In this document: piece by piece, positions 3,493-13,523 of the stretch
Layout of the letters: every line of letters starts with the position of its first letter
Position numbering within the stretch: the first letter of the stretch is position 1
Assembly (NCBI GenBank): GCA_965204375.1
Contig: OZ241986.1
Coordinates: 3,776,001-3,840,000 of the forward strand
DNA length: 64,000 bases
Direction of reading: 5' to 3'
Source: Candidatus Latescibacterota bacterium
GTDB taxonomy: Bacteria; Latescibacterota; UBA2968
Made by a program: the position numbers and the translations under genes
The notes under the pieces: model-generated
What the model was told of the DNA's origin: nothing
The model's database searches: none
Seen by the model: the letters and a program-made list of their open reading frames with translations, nothing else

Positions 3493-3528
3493 CAAACCCC
3501 CATCGCAAAAATGCGCGATGGGGGTTTG
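3493..3528. terminator. Hairpin terminator between convergent genes; left border of the peptide cluster
   Basis: Perfect 14-bp stem CAAACCCCCATCGC / GCGATGGGGGTTTG with an A-run on the left and TTTG on the right. Confidence 0.8.
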
Positions 3529-3550: not shown

Positions 3551-4570
3551 TCAAAGAGCCTTCAAAACATTCTTCAAAATACGCTCTTCCCTTTGAGAAA
3601 TATCATCTAACAAGGTGATAATCTTCAGAATACGATCCACATCCCACGTTCTCTTAATCTCCCCTAACGCTCGCAATTTAAGCATCATCAGATGAACCTG
3701 ATGCGCCTTGTGCTCAACCTCTTTGTACGCCTGATGAAACTGGTCTGACGGACGCAAATACCCGCGATCCTCCAGATAAGCAAGCCTATCCAACATACAA
3801 CGCTTGTGCTCCCAAAGCGTGAATAAATGCCGCCGATCCCACAACCGAGGATGGACAAACAAATGCGTAAAGTAATCTCGCAAAAGCTTATACGTCGCCA
3901 TCCCAAAGACGCCTTCAACTGGCTTGCACAACGTCCGGTAGTGGAGAGACGGATTCTCAGAATGGATGTAGGCTCGCAACTGGTCAATGACAGCATCAAT
4001 ATCAAACTCATAGATACCGTCCTCATCATACTCAAAAAGAGTCACCAGGTACGATCTGGGTTTCTCGGGATCAATCCAGCGAAACGCCGCTTCAAATTCT
4101 GAATATGCAACCCTTGAAACAGCGTAACTCCGCGCTCGATTGAATCCCAGAGTCTCAAGCGTTTCTGTATCGTCATCGTATCCGAATACCATAATAGCAT
4201 GCGGATGATGAATTTTCTCATAAAATGATGTATGCGGCAAGAAATACTCATCGGCAGTTAACTGGACATAGAAGCCCTCATCAATTTGATCGCGAATAAA
4301 CGGCACAATCTGGTTATATACTCTGACGATTGATCGCCTTGGAACAGTGTAGATAGACAGCCACGGCGGGGAGTACTGGCCTTGAAAATAGAAGTTGAAT
4401 CGGATGTTATGTTTGTTCTCATGCAACAGGTCAACGGCGAATAGCTGTATGTAATTGCAGAAGAATCAGGGAATATAATCATCCTGAAGTGACATAATCG
4501 AAAGCCGATAGCCATGTCGAGGATAGCCGTGTATGGGTGGGGATACCTGGATGGGAAGTGTTTTTTTCAT
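3551..4570 (-). pseudogene. BtrH-like (papain/NlpC-fold) protein with one in-frame TGA at codon 35
   Basis: The frame from ATG 4570 reads MKKTLPIQVSPPIHGY...DDYIP*FFCNYIQL and continues in frame into the 291-aa ORF. DEYFLP..HHPHAIMVFGYD resembles the BtrH_N motif. Stop at 4466-4468. Confidence 0.65.
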
Positions 4571-4622
4571 AATATGTCTCAAAAGCTATGCCATCTGAGT
4601 GCGAGCGAAAAATCTATTCTGT

Positions 4623-4889
4623 CTATCCGGCAGCAGGTACCTTCTGTCGTGCTGTGCGAACATAATCAGCCATGGTCTGTACGCTATCAAACAGTTCCAC
4701 GCGCAACTCTTCATCTGGTACTTCAATGTCAAATTCCTCTTCCAGACCCACAATGATCTCAATAGTCGCCATTGAATTAAGCCCCAGACCACCGCCAAAA
4801 AGCGCGTCGTCATCGTCAATTTCTTCTGCATCAACTTCAAGAGACAACGTGCGAATGATCACCTGTTTGACCCGATGTTCAATAGACAT
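4623..4889 (-). CDS. Acyl carrier protein
   Basis: 88 aa, acidic; GLGLNSMATIEIIVGLEEEFDIEVPDEEL with phosphopantetheine Ser39; strong RBS AGGAGGG. Confidence 0.9.
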   Translation of the reverse strand: MSIEHRVKQVIIRTLSLEVDAEEIDDDDALFGGGLGLNSMATIEIIVGLEEEFDIEVPDEELRVELFDSVQTMADYVRTARQKVPAAG

Positions 4890-4897
4890 AACCCCTC

Positions 4898-6799
4898 CTA
4901 TGCGATAGTTGATGTATCATCCTTTGAAAAATATTGAATCACAGTTTCCACAAGACGCTGTTGACCCGTCTCTGAAAGAATCTCAATCGCGGGCACACAA
5001 AAATTATCTTCTAATTTTTTTAGGTGACAATTAATTTGAGATTGTGCCATCTTTTTGGGCGTGATCATACTGCGCCCATAAGCTGTTCGGATATGTTTTT
5101 CGTGGTCTCCCATCGCGAGTAAGATAGTCGGTGCTTTGCACACGGCACGTATGCCATCAATTGTATCTCGGATGTATTCTTCTGCATCAATGCTGTTGAC
5201 CACCAGAATACAGGCATCGGGTTTTACCCCCAGTAAAAACGCCAGTGAAGACAAGCAATGTGTGCTGTGTTCCTGGACATGATAGGGAATGGTCCCCGAC
5301 TGAGAGCCTGTCAGGATAATATCGGGCTGTGTGCGCTGGCAAATCTCCCGAATTTTGTAATCCAGATACGGTATGTAATGTTGAAATGGCAGTTTGAGCG
5401 GCGAAGCGTAGCCCATTGGAAAAGCAGCATCCATGCCAAATAGCCGAGAATGGTGCTCTGTGCCAATCTGCCCGACTTTATAGCCCTTTTTGATGAGTCT
5501 GCGCCTGAGCGCAAGTTGCAAAGTGAACTTGCCCTGCTGAGAACTCGTGCCCATCACAGAAAGCACTGGCACATCTACAGGCGGGAGCGTGTTGAAATTT
5601 TGAATGGCCTGTGTGATTTCTTCTCTATGAATGTGAGGATAGGCAAGGCGCAGTCCCTTCTTATCCGCTGTATCATACAGATCGCCGTAAACGGTTGGAT
5701 CAAGTGCCTGAAAACTGAACACATGACATTCCTCATCAAGAGCCAATTGCACATATTCTCTGAGCAAATCGCGCTTGCGGATGCGAGATAGTTGATCCAC
5801 ATAGCCGAGAATGAGCGTATCTGCATCTGCCATTGTGTGCCGGATATTCGGGCTAATCCGCAAATTTACCTGAGATTCGCCAATCACCTTACTCGCATCT
5901 TTGCCCACTATCCCCTTTCCAATGGGGTCGGCGACACCGACAATCTCAAACGCGAGCAAATCGCGATAGCGCACCAGACTGTGCATCTCTTTGTTATACG
6001 GATACAACACGGCTTTCTTGATATAGGCATAGTCCTCTTGAAAATCTTTTTGGTGTGACTGAAGACCAGATTTGGACTTATTTTGACCTTGAGATATTTC
6101 GTTTAATGCTTTTTCTTTTAATAATAATCGAATATCTTGAACCGAACATTTTGGATGCTGTTCCAACAGGTGTGCGATAATACCCGTGATATGGGGTGCG
6201 GCAAAGCTGTTTCCTCCGGTCATAATATGTTTGCCGTTTAACCAGCACACGCGCTGTTCATCCCCTCGCGCTACACATTCGATGCGCTGATCTTCGCGGT
6301 AATAAAATCCATCTGCTTCATAAATCGCACCACCTGTCACACCAATCACTTCGGGAAATACCGCAGGATAACTCTCACGTCCGTCATTACTCTCAGCAAC
6401 TACGAGAATTACGCCAGCATCAATTGCTTTGCGGCACACCTTTTGAAGAGATTTCTTAAACGTCACATCCGTCGTGCCCAGGCTCAAATTCACCACATCC
6501 ATCTTGTTGTCAATGCACCACTGAATCGCCGCAATGAGTGCCCGTCCATCTGCCATCAAAGATGCATCAAAAATCCGCACGCTATAAAGTGCTGCATTAG
6601 GGGCCTTCTTGCGAATAATTCCAGCACACGCCGTACCATGCCCTGCACAGTCGGCGTGGTTATCTAAAAATACAATCCCACATTCTTCACCAACCTGAAT
6701 ATGAATACCACCCGAAATTTCACCTACATCAGGATGCGGAGCGTCTATGCCGCTATCGACAATGGCAAGCCGGATTTGAGAGGGATTTTCTTTAAACAT
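4898..6799 (-). CDS. S8 subtilase fused to a DUF1611 / TIGR04066-like P-loop domain
   Basis: Triad motifs AIVDSG, GHGTACAG, GNSFAAPHITG; C-terminal VMGTSSQQGKFT and GSQSG; no signal peptide. Confidence 0.82.
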   Translation of the reverse strand: MFKENPSQIRLAIVDSGIDAPHPDVGEISGGIHIQVGEECGIVFLDNHADCAGHGTACAGIIRKKAPNAALYSVRIFDASLMADGRALIAAIQWCIDNKMDVVNLSLGTTDVTFKKSLQKVCRKAIDAGVILVVAESNDGRESYPAVFPEVIGVTGGAIYEADGFYYREDQRIECVARGDEQRVCWLNGKHIMTGGNSFAAPHITGIIAHLLEQHPKCSVQDIRLLLKEKALNEISQGQNKSKSGLQSHQKDFQEDYAYIKKAVLYPYNKEMHSLVRYRDLLAFEIVGVADPIGKGIVGKDASKVIGESQVNLRISPNIRHTMADADTLILGYVDQLSRIRKRDLLREYVQLALDEECHVFSFQALDPTVYGDLYDTADKKGLRLAYPHIHREEITQAIQNFNTLPPVDVPVLSVMGTSSQQGKFTLQLALRRRLIKKGYKVGQIGTEHHSRLFGMDAAFPMGYASPLKLPFQHYIPYLDYKIREICQRTQPDIILTGSQSGTIPYHVQEHSTHCLSSLAFLLGVKPDACILVVNSIDAEEYIRDTIDGIRAVCKAPTILLAMGDHEKHIRTAYGRSMITPKKMAQSQINCHLKKLEDNFCVPAIEILSETGQQRLVETVIQYFSKDDTSTIA

Positions 6800-7517
6800 G
6801 ACATTCTCTAACTAATGATGGTGAATCCATGATCTTGCATTCCACATCAATGATTTCCTTTTTTTTCCAATCAACCAACACACGCAATGTGTCATCAGCC
6901 TTTCTTGGCTTCCAGCGATACTCAAAGACGCTTATGCCATTCATTTCAACAGCATCATACCCATAACTGCGTTCATTTCGGAGTGTGCGAATATAATCAT
7001 GGCGAGCAAAATAGGGTTGTGCATCTATATGCTTCACAATAGCTGGCAGATAATTTTCCATCAAAAGATTGGTACCTGGTATCGCACGAAATCCATAGCG
7101 TTTGTAAAGTGGAATTCCTTTTCGATTGAACGACCAGGTCGTAATTTCGATGCGTTTACAATCAGATCCACAGACAGTTCTCAAACACGCATCCCCCAGT
7201 GCCAGTCCAAAAGTTCCGCGCCTCTGAAAATCAGGATGGGTTTCTACATGAGAAAAAATGAGCACACCAGACTCAGATTTCTTCTGAGTTATTTTCATGG
7301 ATGAAATGATCCGGTGATTTCGCTTGAGTAAATAGATGACCGAGTGCTCTAAGTTGCTCAAGTCCTCAATAATTTCTTCACAAGTAGGCAGGCATTCAGA
7401 GTTGGGCTGTCTTTGAAAAGCATTTGAAGACAAGGACCAGTGTTGTGTCTGAATATCTCTCAAAAAGGTAGCATAGTGATGTAAATCGTTTTTGCTTAAG
7501 GGATGAATTTGAAACAT
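6792..7517 (-). CDS. GNAT family N-acetyltransferase with C-terminal extension
   Basis: VETHPDFQRRGTFG (motif A) and NRKGIPLYKRYGF (motif B). Start assigned to MFQIHP at 7517; overlaps the next gene by 8 nt. Confidence 0.8.
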   Translation of the reverse strand: MFQIHPLSKNDLHHYATFLRDIQTQHWSLSSNAFQRQPNSECLPTCEEIIEDLSNLEHSVIYLLKRNHRIISSMKITQKKSESGVLIFSHVETHPDFQRRGTFGLALGDACLRTVCGSDCKRIEITTWSFNRKGIPLYKRYGFRAIPGTNLLMENYLPAIVKHIDAQPYFARHDYIRTLRNERSYGYDAVEMNGISVFEYRWKPRKADDTLRVLVDWKKKEIIDVECKIMDSPSLVRECHV

Positions 7518-7542
7518 CTTTTTTCTTTCAAAAATGTAAAAA

Positions 7543-8283
7543 TCACTTGCCGACGATATAGCCGCCATACAGAAATCCAAGAAGAGGTGTAATAGTGACA
7601 TTAATATTTGCAGAACTATGAAAAGCCATACATAATAGAAGACTGCGCTTAGATTCGTAGAGATAGGTTAAAAAACAGGCAAGCACTGTCAATGTGATCA
7701 AGTGCAACAAAAATAAGTCCCAATAACCCTCTATGATATAAGGCCATAAACGCTTATGTCGAAAAACAAAGATTGAAATACTAATGACATAAGCCTTAAA
7801 TTTTCCATATTTTGTCCTGATCGTTCCGTAAAGCAGACCTCTGAAAAGAAGCTCTTCTTCAATTGGTGCTAATATAACCCCTCCAATAAAAAGCCATAGA
7901 TACTGAAAAACAAAATCTGGCGGTTGGGCACCGAAGCCTTCCCAAAAATTAAGGGGTAAATAATACGCTGTTAGACCTATACCTGCATATATCCAGAAGA
8001 AGAATACGCGTTTAGGGGGAATAGCATAATACACCATTTTCTTTAACTCAAACCGTCCGAATTGAATCAAAACAAAAAGCACTAAGAGAAGATGCATTCC
8101 TTGCATAAGTACATTCACGAAACCCCTTGGTGGCGATACAAGTCTCCACACAATCACACCTTCCAGGATAATTAAACAAGACCAGATCAAACCTTTTGCC
8201 AAAGGCACCTGAAGTGCTGGCGGCCAGTTCTCTTGTATAGATTCCGTTTTAGAGGCTTCTTCAATTGATGATTCTGGAGCCAT
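7543..8283 (-). CDS. CPBP (CAAX / Abi) intramembrane metalloprotease
   Basis: APIEEELLFRG, FVFRH and HSSAN motifs; multiple TM helices. Confidence 0.88.
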   Translation of the reverse strand: MAPESSIEEASKTESIQENWPPALQVPLAKGLIWSCLIILEGVIVWRLVSPPRGFVNVLMQGMHLLLVLFVLIQFGRFELKKMVYYAIPPKRVFFFWIYAGIGLTAYYLPLNFWEGFGAQPPDFVFQYLWLFIGGVILAPIEEELLFRGLLYGTIRTKYGKFKAYVISISIFVFRHKRLWPYIIEGYWDLFLLHLITLTVLACFLTYLYESKRSLLLCMAFHSSANINVTITPLLGFLYGGYIVGK

Positions 8284-8302: not shown

Positions 8303-8995
8303 TTAATCCAGTTTGTTGCTCAACATCTTAAAACTTTCGTCTGTCAATAAAAATTTGAAAGCCGGCTCTTTGTGAATTTCTTTTTTTCGGGCAGGATCCC
8401 ACTGGAGTGCTCTTTTTAAGCTTGAAAGAGTCTGTTCTTTATTTTTCATTGCTCCATATACCCGGGCTAAGTTATACCAGGTATTACCATCTTTGGGGTC
8501 CAGTTCAATTGACTGATCTAATGCTATGATTGCTTCGGATAATCTACCTGATTCCAGAAATACAACCCCTCTGTTGTTCCAGGCATTAGAATATTTGGTG
8601 TCAAGTTCTAAAGCGCGATCAAATGAAAGAAGTGCTTTATCCAACTCGCCCATTTTTCCCAAAACAGTACCTCGATTATTCCATAATATAGATGCTTGAG
8701 GTAGTATTTGAAGTGCCTGGTCATAAACTTTAAGTGCGTCTTGATTTTTTTCTTGTCCGCTATAAATCAAGCCAATAATGTTCCAGGCAACCTCATTTTC
8801 GGGATTTAATTTGACTACCTGTTGATAGACTTTCAAGGCTTCTTCAACGGCACCAATCTTCAAAAACTTGTTTCCTTTTTTTGACAAAATTTGAGCTTGT
8901 CCACGAGATTTATAAGGTTCGAAAATAAAATTCGCAAAATAATAGAAAGCAACGGCATGTACAAGGGGAAGGCACAGCAGCAGAAACTTTTTCAT
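8303..8995 (-). CDS. Membrane-anchored or secreted tetratricopeptide repeat protein
   Basis: N-terminal hydrophobic segment followed by about five TPRs (AWNNRG, WYNLA). Confidence 0.88.
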   Translation of the reverse strand: MKKFLLLCLPLVHAVAFYYFANFIFEPYKSRGQAQILSKKGNKFLKIGAVEEALKVYQQVVKLNPENEVAWNIIGLIYSGQEKNQDALKVYDQALQILPQASILWNNRGTVLGKMGELDKALLSFDRALELDTKYSNAWNNRGVVFLESGRLSEAIIALDQSIELDPKDGNTWYNLARVYGAMKNKEQTLSSLKRALQWDPARKKEIHKEPAFKFLLTDESFKMLSNKLD

Positions 8996-9216: not shown

Positions 9217-9627
9217 TTAATGAGGCAAGCATTGAGGGCAATAACCAGAGTCCTGAGGGGGAGGGGTAGGCTCCCCCCCGGGGGGGAGAGGAATAGCTAT
9301 ATCAATTGACGCACCGGGCGCTGAAACATTGACCCTTAGAGTATCTACTTGTGTGCTATCACTAGCTGTTTCAATCCATATTGGTGAACTTAAATCAAAA
9401 GTGATGCGGTCACCAAGGTCTCCTGTAAGAGTCTGTGTCCATCCCCTCTCCGTTGTCTGCACACCCGTACTTGTAATTACAGCCGTACTATCTGTAGCAG
9501 TAGAGTCAGGATCTGCCGGTGTATTAGGCGGTGTATAAGGATCAGGCTCCTCGTCCTCACCAGAATAGGCAAGAACGTTTTCCAAACTGCCCATCCGTTG
9601 AGGTTTATGCAACTTTACAATTTTCAT
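9217..9627 (-). CDS. Putative precursor or exported substrate peptide, 136 aa
   Basis: RBS AAGGAG before ATG 9627; basic leader MKIVKLHKPQRMGSLENVLAY followed by an acidic Pro/Thr/Ser-rich body and terminal CPQC; directly downstream of the ABC exporter. Confidence 0.65.
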   Translation of the reverse strand: MKIVKLHKPQRMGSLENVLAYSGEDEEPDPYTPPNTPADPDSTATDSTAVITSTGVQTTERGWTQTLTGDLGDRITFDLSSPIWIETASDSTQVDTLRVNVSAPGASIDIAIPLPPGGEPTPPPQDSGYCPQCLPH

Positions 9628-9682: not shown

Positions 9683-11398
9683 TCATATACTCGCTGTTTT
9701 TTCATACAAATGAGCATAAACTCCATCTTGCATGGCTAACCACTCGTGCGTTCCCCGCTCTGCAATCTGTCCCTCATCCAATACCACAATCTCATCTGCA
9801 TTTTGAATGGTTGAAAGCCGATGTGCGATGATGATGGTTGTCCTACCTTGTCGCACGGTTTTCAATGCTTCTTGAATGTGATATTCAGACTCCATATCCA
9901 ATGCGGCAGTGGGTTCATCTAAAATCAAGATGGGTGTGTCCATCAACAGCACACGCGATAGGGCAATGCGCTGTTTCTGTCCTTCTGACATCTGCGCGCC
10001 CTGTTCACCCACCAGTGTTTCATATCCTTCGGGCAATGAAGCGACAAAGTCGTGGATGTACGCAGCCTGTGTCGCAGCCTGAACATCTCGCAAAGGTATG
10101 TCGTGTCCAAAGGTCAGGTTGTCTAAAATACTGCCCTGAAACAAGGTGCTGCCCTGCATGGCAAATCCCACCTGTTGCCGAATGGATTTCAAGCGATAGT
10201 TCCGAATATCGTACCCATCAATAGACACATATCCCTCTTGCGGGTCGTAAAATCTCGGGATCAATTTGGCAAGCGTTGATTTGCCAGATCCACTCTTGCC
10301 AACCAGTGCAATGGTGGCTTGCGCAGGGATGTGCAGGTCAATATGGCGCAAAACGGGTTGATCTTCTTGGTACGAAAAACACACATTGTGAAAACCGATC
10401 TCACCACGCACCTGAGGCAATGCAGGCATATCGGAACGATCCTGGATTTCGGGTCTCAAGTCATAGACTTCAAAAAACCTATTGATGCGAACCAATGCCA
10501 TTTCAACCTGTCCCACAAGGCCGATGAGATTGCCGATTGGACCGTAGAGATAACCCACATACCCCGAAAAAGCCATATAACTGCCCAGAGAGAGATTGCC
10601 CGATAGAACTTGTGTCCAGCCATACCAGCCATAAGCCAAGGTGCCTGCTGTTTTTACCAACGCCCCTACAAATCCAAATCCACCACTTAAATGCGTTGAC
10701 CGGATTCGCAATTTTGCAACATTGAGAAAAATGTCTCTGAGCTTGTGATAAAACGCGGCTTCCAGTCCCAGTGCTTGCACGGTGCGAATGCCCGAAAGCG
10801 ATTCGTAGGACTTGGCCGATAATTCGGCAGATGCTTCGGTCAATTTTTTAGAAACCCTGCTAAGGTATTTTTTTGACACAATAATCAATACGGTATCAAA
10901 AGGCAGTACCGCCAGACTGAGTAAGGCGAGTTTCCAATTGATGTAGAGCAAAATGGGCGGAAAAATGAGCAACTGAAGCGTGTTCATAATCAAACTGTTC
11001 ACCATCCCAATGGTACTGCCGATGGATCTGTCCATATCCCTGAAGCGAGACAGGATTTCACCCGTCTGCCGATTGTCAAAAAAGCTGAAGTCCTGTGATT
11101 GCACATGGGAGTAGAATCGAGATTTGAAATCCAGCCCCATGTTGACACCCACATAACGCGCAAAATAAGTGCTTAACAATCTTGTAAAACCCAACCCCGT
11201 CGAGAGTACAGCACCTATAATCAGGATAAAGGTCAGGAGTGTGGAGTCTTTGTGGGGATACACGTCATCAATCAAAACCTTGGTGATGTATGGCCCTGGA
11301 ATTTGCAAGAACATGACCATGATGCCCACGAGAAGAGACTGAAAGATAAACCGCCAGTAAGGACGGAGCATTTTGATGATTTTGAGTATCTGACGCAC
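9683..11398 (-). CDS. ABC exporter, fused permease and ATPase, no C39 peptidase domain
   Basis: N-terminal TM domain; Walker A GKSGSGKS, signature variant MSEGQKQR, Walker B ILILDE, IAHRLST. Confidence 0.92.
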   Translation of the reverse strand: MRQILKIIKMLRPYWRFIFQSLLVGIMVMFLQIPGPYITKVLIDDVYPHKDSTLLTFILIIGAVLSTGLGFTRLLSTYFARYVGVNMGLDFKSRFYSHVQSQDFSFFDNRQTGEILSRFRDMDRSIGSTIGMVNSLIMNTLQLLIFPPILLYINWKLALLSLAVLPFDTVLIIVSKKYLSRVSKKLTEASAELSAKSYESLSGIRTVQALGLEAAFYHKLRDIFLNVAKLRIRSTHLSGGFGFVGALVKTAGTLAYGWYGWTQVLSGNLSLGSYMAFSGYVGYLYGPIGNLIGLVGQVEMALVRINRFFEVYDLRPEIQDRSDMPALPQVRGEIGFHNVCFSYQEDQPVLRHIDLHIPAQATIALVGKSGSGKSTLAKLIPRFYDPQEGYVSIDGYDIRNYRLKSIRQQVGFAMQGSTLFQGSILDNLTFGHDIPLRDVQAATQAAYIHDFVASLPEGYETLVGEQGAQMSEGQKQRIALSRVLLMDTPILILDEPTAALDMESEYHIQEALKTVRQGRTTIIIAHRLSTIQNADEIVVLDEGQIAERGTHEWLAMQDGVYAHLYEKTASI

Positions 11399-11400
11399 AT

Positions 11401-12681
11401 TCAGTTCCTGGTCTGTACGTTTTCGAAAGATTCTTCCAACCGATAAATCTCAGGGTGCCCAATTTTGCCCACGGTTTTCAAAAACTTCTTCCACAGCAAG
11501 TCAACGATGGGACCGCGCTCTGTCACGATCTTGGCTTCCACACCCATGCCATAAGCAAGCGGACATTCTCCGTCAGATAAATGAGGATCTATCACGCTGA
11601 TCTTCACCGGATATATAGTACTCATACCGCCCGGTACAAGACCGGCACCCATAGGTGTGATAGGTTCGGGTTTTCTCGGTACGTCTGTCACCCTTCCCTC
11701 AAAAATCTTGTATTCCATGTGGGGAAAAGCATTCACATATATCCGCACCTTATGTCCTTCTTTCACCTTTGGGATATCCACTTCTTGGATCATCACCTCA
11801 GCTTGCCAACTGTGCAATTCGGCCAACTCAATCACTGCTTCACCCGCCTCAATGCGGTCGCCCTCGCGCTTGTCCAAATCGCGCGTCAACACAGTTCCAG
11901 AAACAGGCGCGTATATCTTCATCTGTTCCAGACGTGTTTTGACAAGACGATGGCTGACCTGTAATTTTTCGTACGTCTGTTTTAACATCTCAAGTTCCTG
12001 CTTGCGAGTGTCCAGAGCAGCCAATCGCCGTTTTGTCCGCTCAATTTCTACTTCTGCATGCTGCACTCGCGTCTGATGTACTCGAATGGGAATCAACGTA
12101 TCAACAGGCGGCCGCACACTCCCATCCTCGCGATAAGGCGCGTATTTACGATAGATCTGGTATTCCTGCCGAACCTGTTCCAATTGTAACTGCGCGGTCT
12201 CGTATTCCACTTCAGCACGCGCAATCTCTGTCTCCAAAACAGCACGCTCGCGTTGCAATTCTGCGACCAGAGCCACACGCCGACTTTGATTCATCGCCAG
12301 TTCATGTTCGAGTTGCTCCAATTCCGTGCGTAAATCGGTATCATCCAATGTCAGCATCAAATCACCCTGTTCGATCTCTCGTCCGTGTTGCACATGAACC
12401 GTTTGGATCAAGCCTGATCGTTGCACTTTCACTTCATAACGCGCAGTGGGCTGCAAACGACCTTGTCCTGCAACCGTTATTTCCATGCCCAGATGCCAGC
12501 CCAAAAGACCAATCAGCGCGACCATGCTTCCCACAACGCACAAAATGGTGAGCAAGAAATAGCGCACAAACCGAAACCCAATCCCCGAAGTTGGTAGGGC
12601 TTCCTGTGCCTCTGTGTTTTCCAAAGACACTTCTTTTTGGGGATAACCATTAAATCTTACAACCTGTTCACTATGTGCCAT
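11401..12681 (-). CDS. HlyD family membrane fusion / periplasmic adaptor protein
   Basis: Single TM, long coiled coil, IYAPVSGTV, terminal GMGVEAKIVT. Confidence 0.9.
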   Translation of the reverse strand: MAHSEQVVRFNGYPQKEVSLENTEAQEALPTSGIGFRFVRYFLLTILCVVGSMVALIGLLGWHLGMEITVAGQGRLQPTARYEVKVQRSGLIQTVHVQHGREIEQGDLMLTLDDTDLRTELEQLEHELAMNQSRRVALVAELQRERAVLETEIARAEVEYETAQLQLEQVRQEYQIYRKYAPYREDGSVRPPVDTLIPIRVHQTRVQHAEVEIERTKRRLAALDTRKQELEMLKQTYEKLQVSHRLVKTRLEQMKIYAPVSGTVLTRDLDKREGDRIEAGEAVIELAELHSWQAEVMIQEVDIPKVKEGHKVRIYVNAFPHMEYKIFEGRVTDVPRKPEPITPMGAGLVPGGMSTIYPVKISVIDPHLSDGECPLAYGMGVEAKIVTERGPIVDLLWKKFLKTVGKIGHPEIYRLEESFENVQTRN

Positions 12682-12732: not shown

Positions 12733-13452
12733 TCAAACATCTTCCGAAAACGCCTGAATTTCTCCGCGCATAACTTTTGTGCGGTACTCGGTAGGCGGCA
12801 TTCCGTGTATGGTCTTAAAAGCCTCGCGCAAACGATTTGATGAAAGAAACCCGCATGCACTTGCAATTTCATAAACGAATATTGAAGGTTCTTTTATCAA
12901 ATGCTGTGCTCGTGAAACCCTGATCTCCCTCAATTTTTCTGAGAAAGTCTTGCCCACATGTTTTTTGAACAGTTTGCAACCGTGCGACCTGGAAAACCCG
13001 AAATGGTTCATGACGTCATCAAAGCTCAGTCCTGGATCGCTGTAATGCTCCTCCAAAAACGACTCAAAACTCCTTTTTATCCAATCAGGAGAAGGCATAA
13101 ATTTTTTGACCTTCGCCAAAAATTTATCCTTGCAGATCGGTTTATCCAGCATGCCTACAGCTCCCAGCTTGAACATTCTTTCTGTTGATTCCAGGCGTTC
13201 AGTCCCTCCTATAATCAGGACATTTGTTTGAATTTTCTCGACCTTTAGACAAGCCAAAAGAGATATCGCATCGAGGTCTCTTATATCTTTGTCAACCACA
13301 GCGAGATCGATCTTCTCGCGTCTCAAAGTTTTAAACCCTGCTACCCCATCTCTCGCTGTGAATACATCGTAAAGTTCATCGCTCAAGTATTCACAAAGAG
13401 CCGATATAGCACAGGAGTCGCGATCTACAATCAGAACCTTCTGCTCGCTCAT
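12733..13452 (-). CDS. Response regulator, receiver domain plus AraC HTH
   Basis: KVLIVD..DLAVVD..KPI receiver; FKKHVGKTF..EIASACGF..FKTIHGMPPTEYR AraC domain. Start MSEQK at 13452 with GGAG RBS. Confidence 0.85.
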   Translation of the reverse strand: MSEQKVLIVDRDSCAISALCEYLSDELYDVFTARDGVAGFKTLRREKIDLAVVDKDIRDLDAISLLACLKVEKIQTNVLIIGGTERLESTERMFKLGAVGMLDKPICKDKFLAKVKKFMPSPDWIKRSFESFLEEHYSDPGLSFDDVMNHFGFSRSHGCKLFKKHVGKTFSEKLREIRVSRAQHLIKEPSIFVYEIASACGFLSSNRLREAFKTIHGMPPTEYRTKVMRGEIQAFSEDV

Positions 13453-13523
13453 ATTTGTCTCCGTACGCCAAAAATTTCTACACCCATATTCAAAACATGC
13501 GCCTTGCACTTAGACAGATATAC

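Follow-up and report, generated by a model that had tools for sequence, protein, structure and literature searches.

The gene considered here lies in a 64-kb stretch (64,000 nucleotides, hereafter the window; contig OZ241986.1, positions 3,776,001 to 3,840,000) of a Candidatus Latescibacterota bacterium, and encodes an S8 subtilase fused to a DUF1611-like domain (4898..6799). All coordinates below are positions in this 64-kb window, and the genes of the operon are on its minus strand. Along that strand the gene order is: response regulator/AraC, HlyD-type adaptor, ABC exporter, precursor peptide, TPR protein, CPBP-like membrane protease, GNAT-type acetyltransferase, the fused enzyme, an acyl carrier protein (ACP), a BtrH_N-like gene and a hairpin. 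The fused gene appears to be the signature enzyme of an operon for the maturation and export of a ribosomal, bacteriocin-like peptide.

The fused enzyme is a single open reading frame (ORF) that starts with ATG and specifies 633 aa, with Pfam matches to both S8 and DUF1611. Its S8 protease domain (residues 9–239; 6083..6775) scores 88.2 bits against the Pfam Peptidase_S8 model (cut-off 21.8). The catalytic codons are at 6755-6757 (Asp15), 6638-6640 (His54) and 6206-6208 (Ser198), with that of the oxyanion residue, Asn138, at 6386-6388; these four residues, the triad being in the Asp-His-Ser order, are invariant in all 11 sequences of an alignment at 55–88% identity. The protein begins just 14 residues ahead of the catalytic Asp, and neither a hydrophobic N-terminus nor a prodomain can be read from its sequence; the protease is therefore cytoplasmic. 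Pfam, the invariant triad and this reading of the sequence together confirm an earlier annotation made from the sequence alone (the first-pass annotation), which had noted a full S8 motif set and no signal peptide. Among named protease models in NCBIfam, the best-scoring one for this domain is QhpE (NF049966; residues 10–232, 153.2 bits, under the cut-off of 165). A consensus is missing from the 11-sequence alignment only at residues about 233–258, which marks a variable linker (placed at residues about 233–262; 6014..6103).

The rest of the protein is a DUF1611-fold domain (residues 261–625; 4925..6019) with a Rossmann-like and a P-loop subdomain, assigned from TIGR04066, Pfam, an AlphaFold2 model and fold matches. 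TIGR04066 (NCBIfam, ‘peptide maturation system protein’) matches residues 261–625 with 137.8 bits, below its cut-off of 200, and the match spans positions 1–360 of the 361 in the profile. The Pfam DUF1611 P-loop domain (PF07755) matches residues 408–616, scoring 36 bits (cut-off 25; the genome search gave 38); at E ≤ 0.01 the matches of the window protein do not include the model for the N-terminal subdomain (PF17396), which is precomputed for many homologues. Both motifs that the first-pass annotation had pointed out are present: the P-loop, GTSSQQGKFT, is G417-T-S-S-Q-Q-G-K-F-T426 (5522-5551), and GSQSG is at residues 498–502. The G, T, G-K-F-T and G/Q positions of these motifs are invariant in the 11-sequence alignment.

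An AlphaFold2 model of residues 255–633, computed from 51 sequences, has a predicted local distance difference test (pLDDT) score of 94.8 and a predicted template modelling (pTM) score of 0.92. A VIA-align search of 48,161 chains with this model gives 2g0t_B as the top match (Z 29.8, root-mean-square deviation (rmsd) 2.9, 315 aligned residues), then 2obn_A (Z 28.5) and third 7xrj_A, entitled ‘N-acetyltransferase DgcN-25328’ (Z 24.9, rmsd 3.9, 306 aligned), after which the scores drop to about Z 15 (14.9) at the next, unrelated family. Foldseek, used as a second method, returns the identical top three (E 5.6e-15 to 1.4e-12), so that the DUF1611/DgcN-like character proposed in the first-pass annotation holds: the domain superimposes on 2g0t, 2obn and 7xrj. 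Lower rows on the P-loop half are MinD/ParA-type ATPases and acyl-phosphate-forming ligases (dethiobiotin synthetase, CTP synthase and formyl-tetrahydrofolate synthetase, with Z 13–15), and the Rossmann half matches DapB-like and amine-dehydrogenase Rossmann domains. By sequence, hhalign against three classical DUF1611 members gives 93.5% probability over 254 columns, and phmmer of the C-terminal domain against the PDB finds no more than a borderline similarity to the P-loop of 2g0t (E 0.15); a PDB profile search with an alignment whose rows carry the protease part returned subtilisins only, and is for that reason uninformative for this domain.

Residues that are near-invariant among the 51 sequences (∼30–60% identity; domain numbering) are G163, T164, Q168-G-K-F171, G-T-E194, G244, Q246, N281 and D284; they cluster in the P-loop and neighbouring loops, as expected of an active site that binds a ligand. 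With the solved DUF1611 structures, TM0796 (2g0t), Ava_3511 (2obn) and DgcN (7xrj), the domain has the two-subdomain fold in common over 306–315 residues at only 14–18% sequence identity (18% for 7xrj), and the P-loop (G-T-x4-G-K) and G-Q-x-S motifs of classical members align with it. There are also differences: proteins of the fused type score 35–51 bits on PF07755, where classical DUF1611 proteins from this phylum reach 240–251; the fused type has G-T-E where classical DUF1611 proteins have A-T-G-Q-T-G, and V-V-N where they have C-H-E-P; and classical genes are stand-alone ORFs of 332–397 aa, whereas the window domain forms one polypeptide with a protease and has an ACP as its partner. The window domain is best placed, on sequence, in a divergent subfamily of DUF1611.

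At E ≤ 0.001 the full-length query has 618 homologues, and both PF00082 and PF07755 are found in 118 of the 120 listed; the fusion is therefore not due to chance. The C-terminal 379 residues alone match 1449 representative clusters at E ≤ 0.001 (496 at E ≤ 1e-30), and among the best 150 matches to the C-terminal domain 120 are at least 560 aa long. We collected two sets of loci by genome scans: set 1 contains 78 loci, nearly all from Latescibacterota metagenome-assembled genomes with some from Gemmatimonadota and KSB1, and set 2 contains 80 loci from Bacillota and Treponema. Up to six copies of the fused gene are found on one chromosome in the 78-locus scan, and 26 of the 61 sampled Latescibacterota genomes have a PF07755 match (three classical stand-alone DUF1611 genes are among these). 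In set 2 a fused ORF of 584–653 aa is found in 70 of the 80 loci; nine proteins of 364–421 aa had been taken as stand-alone seeds for this set, and since the loci returned were mostly fused they are uninformative on stand-alone genes. A search for longer (Rosetta-stone) fusions found 36 proteins of 665–735 aa, 35 with PF00082 plus PF07755 and one with PF07755 alone; none of the 36 has a fused carrier or ligase domain, which is weak evidence.

The genome of the window has a second fused copy, 88% identical and ∼85 kb away. It belongs to a paralogous cluster (L168, G000:C1:3686000-3705900), whose identities with the window genes are 36% for HlyD, 62% for the ABC exporter, 88% for the fused enzyme, 92% for the ACP and 90% for an intact ligase; this cluster also has a regulator, a CPBP-like gene and its own precursor (L168:11745-12188, minus strand).

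The stop codon of the fused gene (TAG, 4898-4900) is followed by 8 nt that include a GAGG Shine-Dalgarno motif and then by the ATG, at 4889, of the ACP gene (4623..4889; 88 aa; PP-binding, PF00550, 43.5 bits against a cut-off of 20.8; Ser39 codon at 4773-4775). On TIGR04069 (acyl carrier-related protein) the window ACP scores 16.8 bits, under the cut-off of 70. An ACP ORF lies directly downstream of the fused enzyme in 64 of the 78 set-1 loci, with the phosphopantetheine-attachment serine present in 66 out of 66; in set 2 an ACP-like ORF is found in 64 of the 80 loci, and the serine in 67 out of 67. That the ACP is the partner of the fused enzyme, as the first-pass annotation had suggested, is probable and well supported by this adjacency and by the invariant serine.

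The predicted substrate is a precursor peptide of 136 aa (9217..9627), recognized by its leader family and preceded by an AGGAG motif 8–9 nt before its ATG. It is acidic and not Cys-rich; its 21-aa leader ends with Tyr21 (9565-9567), and Glu24 is encoded at 9556-9558. Candidate precursors in both locus sets share a basic leader of ∼20 residues ending in V/I-x-A-Y, followed by x-x-E. Among 45 distinct candidate sites (one of the rows is mis-anchored), V/I stands at P4 in 44, A at P2 in 43, Y at P1 in 44 and E at P3′ in 38; the seed pattern behind this table demanded E, D or G at P3′, and therefore only the figure for non-seed sites, 12 out of 15, is unbiased at that position. This figure comes from a hidden Markov model (HMM) of the leader only, which carries no prime-side information: it found 38 sites, some with weak E-values. 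All 38 lie on the same strand as the enzyme gene, and 33 of them, the 12 of 15 non-seed sites included, have E at P3′. In an alignment of 24 precursors Met1 and Tyr21 are invariant and Ala20 and Glu24 nearly so, and the cores are hypervariable, being acidic, Cys/Trp-rich, or Gly/Ala-rich and hydrophobic; in Bacillota and Treponema loci the same V/I-x-A-Y motif stands ahead of tiny Cys-rich cores. The leader HMM found nothing significant in the paralogous cluster, where the precursor, found by reading ORFs, has I-E-A-Y and then G-C-E.

Subtilisins prefer a hydrophobic residue at P4, a small one at P2 and an aromatic one at P1. The ABC exporter of the operon (9683..11398; 571 aa; ABC_membrane from residue 21 plus ABC_tran; found in 54 of the 78 loci) lacks a C39 peptidase domain, and the leader must therefore be removed by a different protease. 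This exporter and the subtilisin-like motif make cleavage after Tyr by the S8 domain the best-supported single step in our reading: the leader is probably cut by the S8 domain after the Tyr of V/I-x-A-Y, which is well supported by the motif. The cut after ...VLAY in the first-pass annotation fits the motif conserved in the 45 candidate precursors. A complex prediction with leader and ACP, which that annotation had listed as a check, was run with the enzyme, the ACP and precursor residues 1–45, the precursor being the scored partner, and agrees in part: the median of 0.45, against 0.02 for the best control, counts as ‘weak support’ for precursor binding somewhere on enzyme plus ACP, but the score does not give the position of the leader. 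The 0.45 mark is reached by 58 of 80 solved complexes and by two of 110 mismatches, but of those that reach it only seven of the 80 solved complexes, and both of the mismatches, stay at 0.60 or under; at least 27% of contacts are common to the runs, and the partner pLDDT is 34 or higher.

The gene after the ACP (3551..4570) is an interrupted gene for a CtaG/CcbD/BtrH-like carrier-dependent ligase, recognized from intact homologues and from the fold of a paralogue. It has an in-frame TGA at 4466-4468 (codon 35), three codons ahead of the putative nucleophile, where 35 of 37 homologues have Trp. The same TGA is found in independent 282-nt contigs of sequencing runs X15 and X16, which are identical to the window (depth 8 and 28), and is thus a true nonsense change at strain level rather than an assembly error; runs X1 and X2 have only TGG at this codon. 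A genetic code reading TGA as Trp was considered and rejected, as this is the sole differing codon and relatives have TGG. Runs that contain at least part of window positions 4300–4700 (20 rows from nine studies) have mostly sponge metagenome labels, and some marine or coral ones. Sponges are a known source of natural products.

Because the window copy is interrupted, the fold was tested on an intact paralogue (L002:148-1164; 37 sequences). The model (pLDDT 91) has an N-terminal alpha/beta domain and a C-terminal helical region, and its best matches, over 282–297 residues, are CcbD (7yn1_A, Z 18.5, 297 aligned), AziU3/U2 (Z 16.9) and CtaG (9qvj_A, Z 16.8), with the next rows at Z ≤ 11.5; Foldseek agrees. 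At the nucleophile position (38) 25 of the 37 sequences have Ser (19) or Cys (six), and His124 and Asp132 are found in 34 and 32 of them, respectively. BtrH_N scores 25.3 bits on the window gene and 25.9 bits in L004, below its cut-off of 29.7; a second downstream family, found in 16–18 other loci, passes (BtrH_N 51.8 bits, DUF4872 39.9 bits). According to the CtaG paper, these papain-like proteins are amide ligases that depend on a peptidyl carrier protein (PCP) and have a Cys-His-Asp triad; BtrH and AsbE use a carrier-bound donor and a free acceptor, and the CtaG step is an end-capping reaction. The genes found here share with CtaG, CcbD, BtrH and AsbE the bipartite fold, the nucleophile-His-Asp pattern and the carrier protein alongside; they differ from CtaG, CcbD and BtrH in sequence (8–12% identity) and in belonging to a ribosomal-peptide operon rather than to a non-ribosomal pathway. 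On its modelled fold, we assign the gene after the ACP to the CtaG/CcbD-fold ligase family.

In one locus (L055:12165-14888) and four similar ones, the gene after the ACP encodes instead a 907-aa protein with a PP-binding domain (373–432) and a Condensation domain of the non-ribosomal peptide synthetase type (483–891), which places a ribosomal-peptide operon beside non-ribosomal parts. Counting ligases, GNATs and condensation domains together, 48 of 56 set-1 and 43 of 55 set-2 loci with full flanks (about 80%) have an acyltransferase-type neighbour.

Upstream of the fused gene lies a GNAT-type acetyltransferase (6792..7601; Acetyltransf_1, 21.6 bits against a cut-off of 20.7), with homologues in 15 of the 78 loci; its 3′ end runs 8 nt into the start of the fused gene, and the ORF as listed also overlaps the end of the CPBP gene (7543), an overlap that would be removed if the gene began at the equivalent of Met29 (7517), where its homologues begin. 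The CPBP/Rce1-like membrane protease (7543..8283; Pfam 55.2 bits; 24 of the 78 loci) is of a type usually read as serving bacteriocin immunity or processing. Next come a TPR protein with a hydrophobic N-terminus (8303..8995; Pfam TPR families) and, beyond the precursor and the exporter, an HlyD-type periplasmic adaptor (11401..12681; Pfam and NCBIfam; 46 of the 78 loci) and a response regulator with an AraC-type helix-turn-helix (12733..13509; Pfam). A terminator-like hairpin of 15 pairs followed by a T run (3493..3528) closes the operon; a promoter scan was uninformative (18 sites versus 17.4 expected).

In set 2 the ABC exporter is found in 72 of the 80 loci, a 447-aa family in 60 and the downstream BtrH_N-like family in 46. 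ORFs with a CxxxCxxC motif and the size of a radical SAM enzyme (judged by motif and size) occur in three of the 78 set-1 loci versus 59 of the 80 set-2 loci, and neither the ORF list nor Pfam shows a radical-SAM-like ORF in the window operon. Recurrent extra neighbours (e.g. in L031, L016, L050 and L043) are membrane-anchored redoxin/AhpC-TSA proteins, a rhodanese encoded immediately upstream of the fused gene, membrane proteins with a Yip1 domain, a GT28 glycosyltransferase and six-bladed beta-propeller proteins. These neighbours accompany precursors rich in Cys/Trp, and may serve in disulfide or sulfur handling.

The explanation we favour, tentatively and at slightly less than an even chance, is that the S8 domain cuts the precursor, the DUF1611-like domain charges the ACP, a ligase caps the peptide and the ABC/HlyD pair exports it. 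The S8 domain would remove the leader after Tyr (Tyr21 of the 9217-9627 product), and the DUF1611-like domain would serve the ACP, most likely by charging it with an acyl or aminoacyl thioester, a task that in other CtaG/BtrH-type systems belongs to adenylating or ATP-grasp enzymes (AsbC, BtrJ). A carrier-dependent ligase, namely the CtaG/CcbD/BtrH-like product of the gene after the ACP (elsewhere a GNAT or a condensation domain), would then move the cargo to the freed amine to give an N-capped peptide, and the ABC/HlyD pair would export it. As the window ligase has a nonsense codon, capping in this strain would fall to the upstream GNAT or to the paralogue at 85 kb, which is intact. We infer the charging role by elimination, with AsbC/AsbD/AsbE and BtrJ/BtrI/BtrH as analogues: the conserved gene set of the set-1 and set-2 loci has no gene for adenylation, ATP-grasp or ketosynthase enzymes, which leaves the DUF1611-like domain as the only conserved enzyme for loading, and because the transfer step has a better candidate in the ligase, charging the ACP is the likeliest task left for it. 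Taken further, the domain would be a new P-loop carrier loader, neither adenylating nor ATP-grasp, that enables thiotemplated capping of an N-terminus exposed by a protease, a proposal we hold to be rather unlikely as it stands; equally doubtful is its corollary, a ribosomal pathway that borrows non-ribosomal carrier chemistry in at least four phyla under one leader code (V/I-x-A-Y, x-x-E).

Several points weigh against charging of the ACP followed by capping. The one characterised DUF1611 protein is, by its PDB title, an N-acetyltransferase, which favours direct acylation equally. The P-loop Lys is followed by Phe where P-loop nucleoside triphosphatases (NTPases) have the Mg-binding Ser/Thr, and canonical use of ATP is therefore uncertain. 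There is no obvious logic in fusing a loader to a protease, unless the fusion merely assembles a complex, and no separate acyltransferase lies within ∼6 kb in eight of the 56 and 12 of the 55 full-flank loci. The seeding of P3′ described above limits what the conserved Glu can say. Lastly, SacP23, the product of an eight-gene Paenibacillus polymyxa cluster that holds this cassette (see below), has no Glu at P3′; its N-terminus is reported to be blocked to Edman degradation, which fits capping by a ligase, direct acylation or cyclisation onto a Glu, and the block could also come from the radical SAM chemistry of its cluster.

Much of this evidence bears on a rival scheme, in which the DUF1611-like domain is itself an N-acyltransferase that moves the acyl group from acyl-S-ACP to the new N-terminus, and the CtaG-like, GNAT and condensation proteins make other, lineage-specific decorations; DgcN, which takes acetyl from a CoA thioester, would be the precedent. 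The fold match to DgcN (7xrj, over 306 aa) speaks for it, as does the fusion, which is natural for two successive steps on one substrate; the conserved P3′ Glu could be a recognition element (the substrate of DgcN is glutamate), a P-loop with Phe after Lys suits the phosphate of pantetheine better than Mg-ATP, the loci just mentioned have no other acyltransferase nearby, and the blocked N-terminus reported for SacP23 would follow. Yet the scheme leaves the ACP without a loading enzyme in the conserved gene set, and gives no part in the capping to the dedicated carrier-dependent ligase that follows the ACP in most loci. The subfamily is also divergent, by its PF07755 scores and by the motifs around the P-loop, and none of the six NCBIfam matches at E ≤ 0.01 is to a model named for DgcN (the library may have no such model). 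The first-pass annotation had the DUF1611-like domain N-acylate the peptide in this way; since a ligase, GNAT or condensation domain is at hand in 48 of the 56 and in 43 of the 55 full-flank loci, this has become doubtful, and we regard it as unlikely.

The conserved Glu has a different role if the P-loop domain activates its side chain, possibly as an ACP thioester, for attack by the alpha-amine or another amine, to give an N-terminal lactam or a Glu-linked adduct and, again, the kind of blocked N-terminus reported for SacP23. Glu at P3′ is kept across phyla and hypervariable cores (Bacillota examples included), carboxylate-activating P-loop ligases are among the fold neighbours, and a fusion of protease and activating enzyme parallels the B/C logic of lasso peptides. 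We consider this the least probable of the readings, as the Glu is missing in three of the 15 unbiased sites and from SacP23, cyclases are not known to load a side chain onto a carrier protein, and the P-loop lacks the canonical Mg-binding Ser/Thr. Finally, the domain may have no chemistry of its own and be a leader-binding or nucleotide-gated part of the protease, the ACP and ligase acting independently. Proteases of RiPPs (peptides that are made by ribosomes and modified after translation) often have recognition domains, no catalytic residue of DUF1611 is known to us, and the complex prediction lends weak support to leader binding somewhere on enzyme plus ACP; but the near-invariant residues form the pattern of a ligand-binding site, and in the split-gene form TIGR04066 is listed beside the ACP-related gene and not beside the subtilase. 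We consider a purely regulatory module improbable.

If charging of the ACP by the DUF1611-like domain is true, the largest DUF1611 subfamily would gain a function, and there would be a new way of loading a carrier protein. It would also define ribosomal peptides with capped N-termini and hypervariable cores as a family processed through one short, simple recognition motif, a motif attractive for genome mining and for peptide engineering.

Further known systems resemble parts of the window operon. QhpE, a subtilisin-like enzyme, is the leader protease in the maturation of quinohemoprotein amine dehydrogenase; like the S8 domain here it is a short protease without a prodomain that acts on a ribosomal peptide in the cytoplasm, but it has no fused domain (the model length is 219), and the window operon has no Qhp partner genes. 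Goadvionins and lipolanthines are RiPPs whose N-acylation employs a GNAT, with acyl-ACP as the donor. They resemble our favoured scheme in that a ribosomal peptide is N-acylated from a carrier thioester after leader removal, and a GNAT lies directly upstream of the fused gene here; their acyl chains, however, are built by polyketide synthase (PKS) or fatty acid synthase (FAS) genes, of which the conserved set here has none, and they have no DUF1611 enzyme.

The closest relative is the TIGR04066/TIGR04069/subtilase cassette of the CcpM-type system (TIGR04068 radical SAM enzyme, CLI_3235 precursor), with which the window operon has in common a DUF1611-like protein, a small carrier, a subtilase and an ABC exporter. 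In the papers on it, the cassette is exemplified by the SacP23 cluster and by a Roseburia intestinalis cluster, with the split trio beside the TIGR04068 enzyme, and one paper guesses, without a test, at ‘immunity’ for TIGR04066; our literature searches found no paper that tests a TIGR04066 protein, its carrier partner or the fused enzyme. The published SacP23 precursor has the same basic start and a leader ending in E-A-F (A-F versus A-Y here). The window operon differs in that its proteins score below the TIGR04066 and TIGR04069 cut-offs, its precursor is acidic and 136 aa long, and GNAT, CPBP and TPR genes are added. The cassette has been catalogued since TIGRFAMs and is very large, with several copies per Latescibacterota genome, and the window operon is a Latescibacterota variant of it without the radical SAM enzyme. 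What is new here is the cleavage code common across phyla, the invariant carrier serine, the recognition of the downstream gene as a probable CtaG/CcbD-fold ligase, and this multi-copy, radical-SAM-less Latescibacterota variant with its long acidic precursors.

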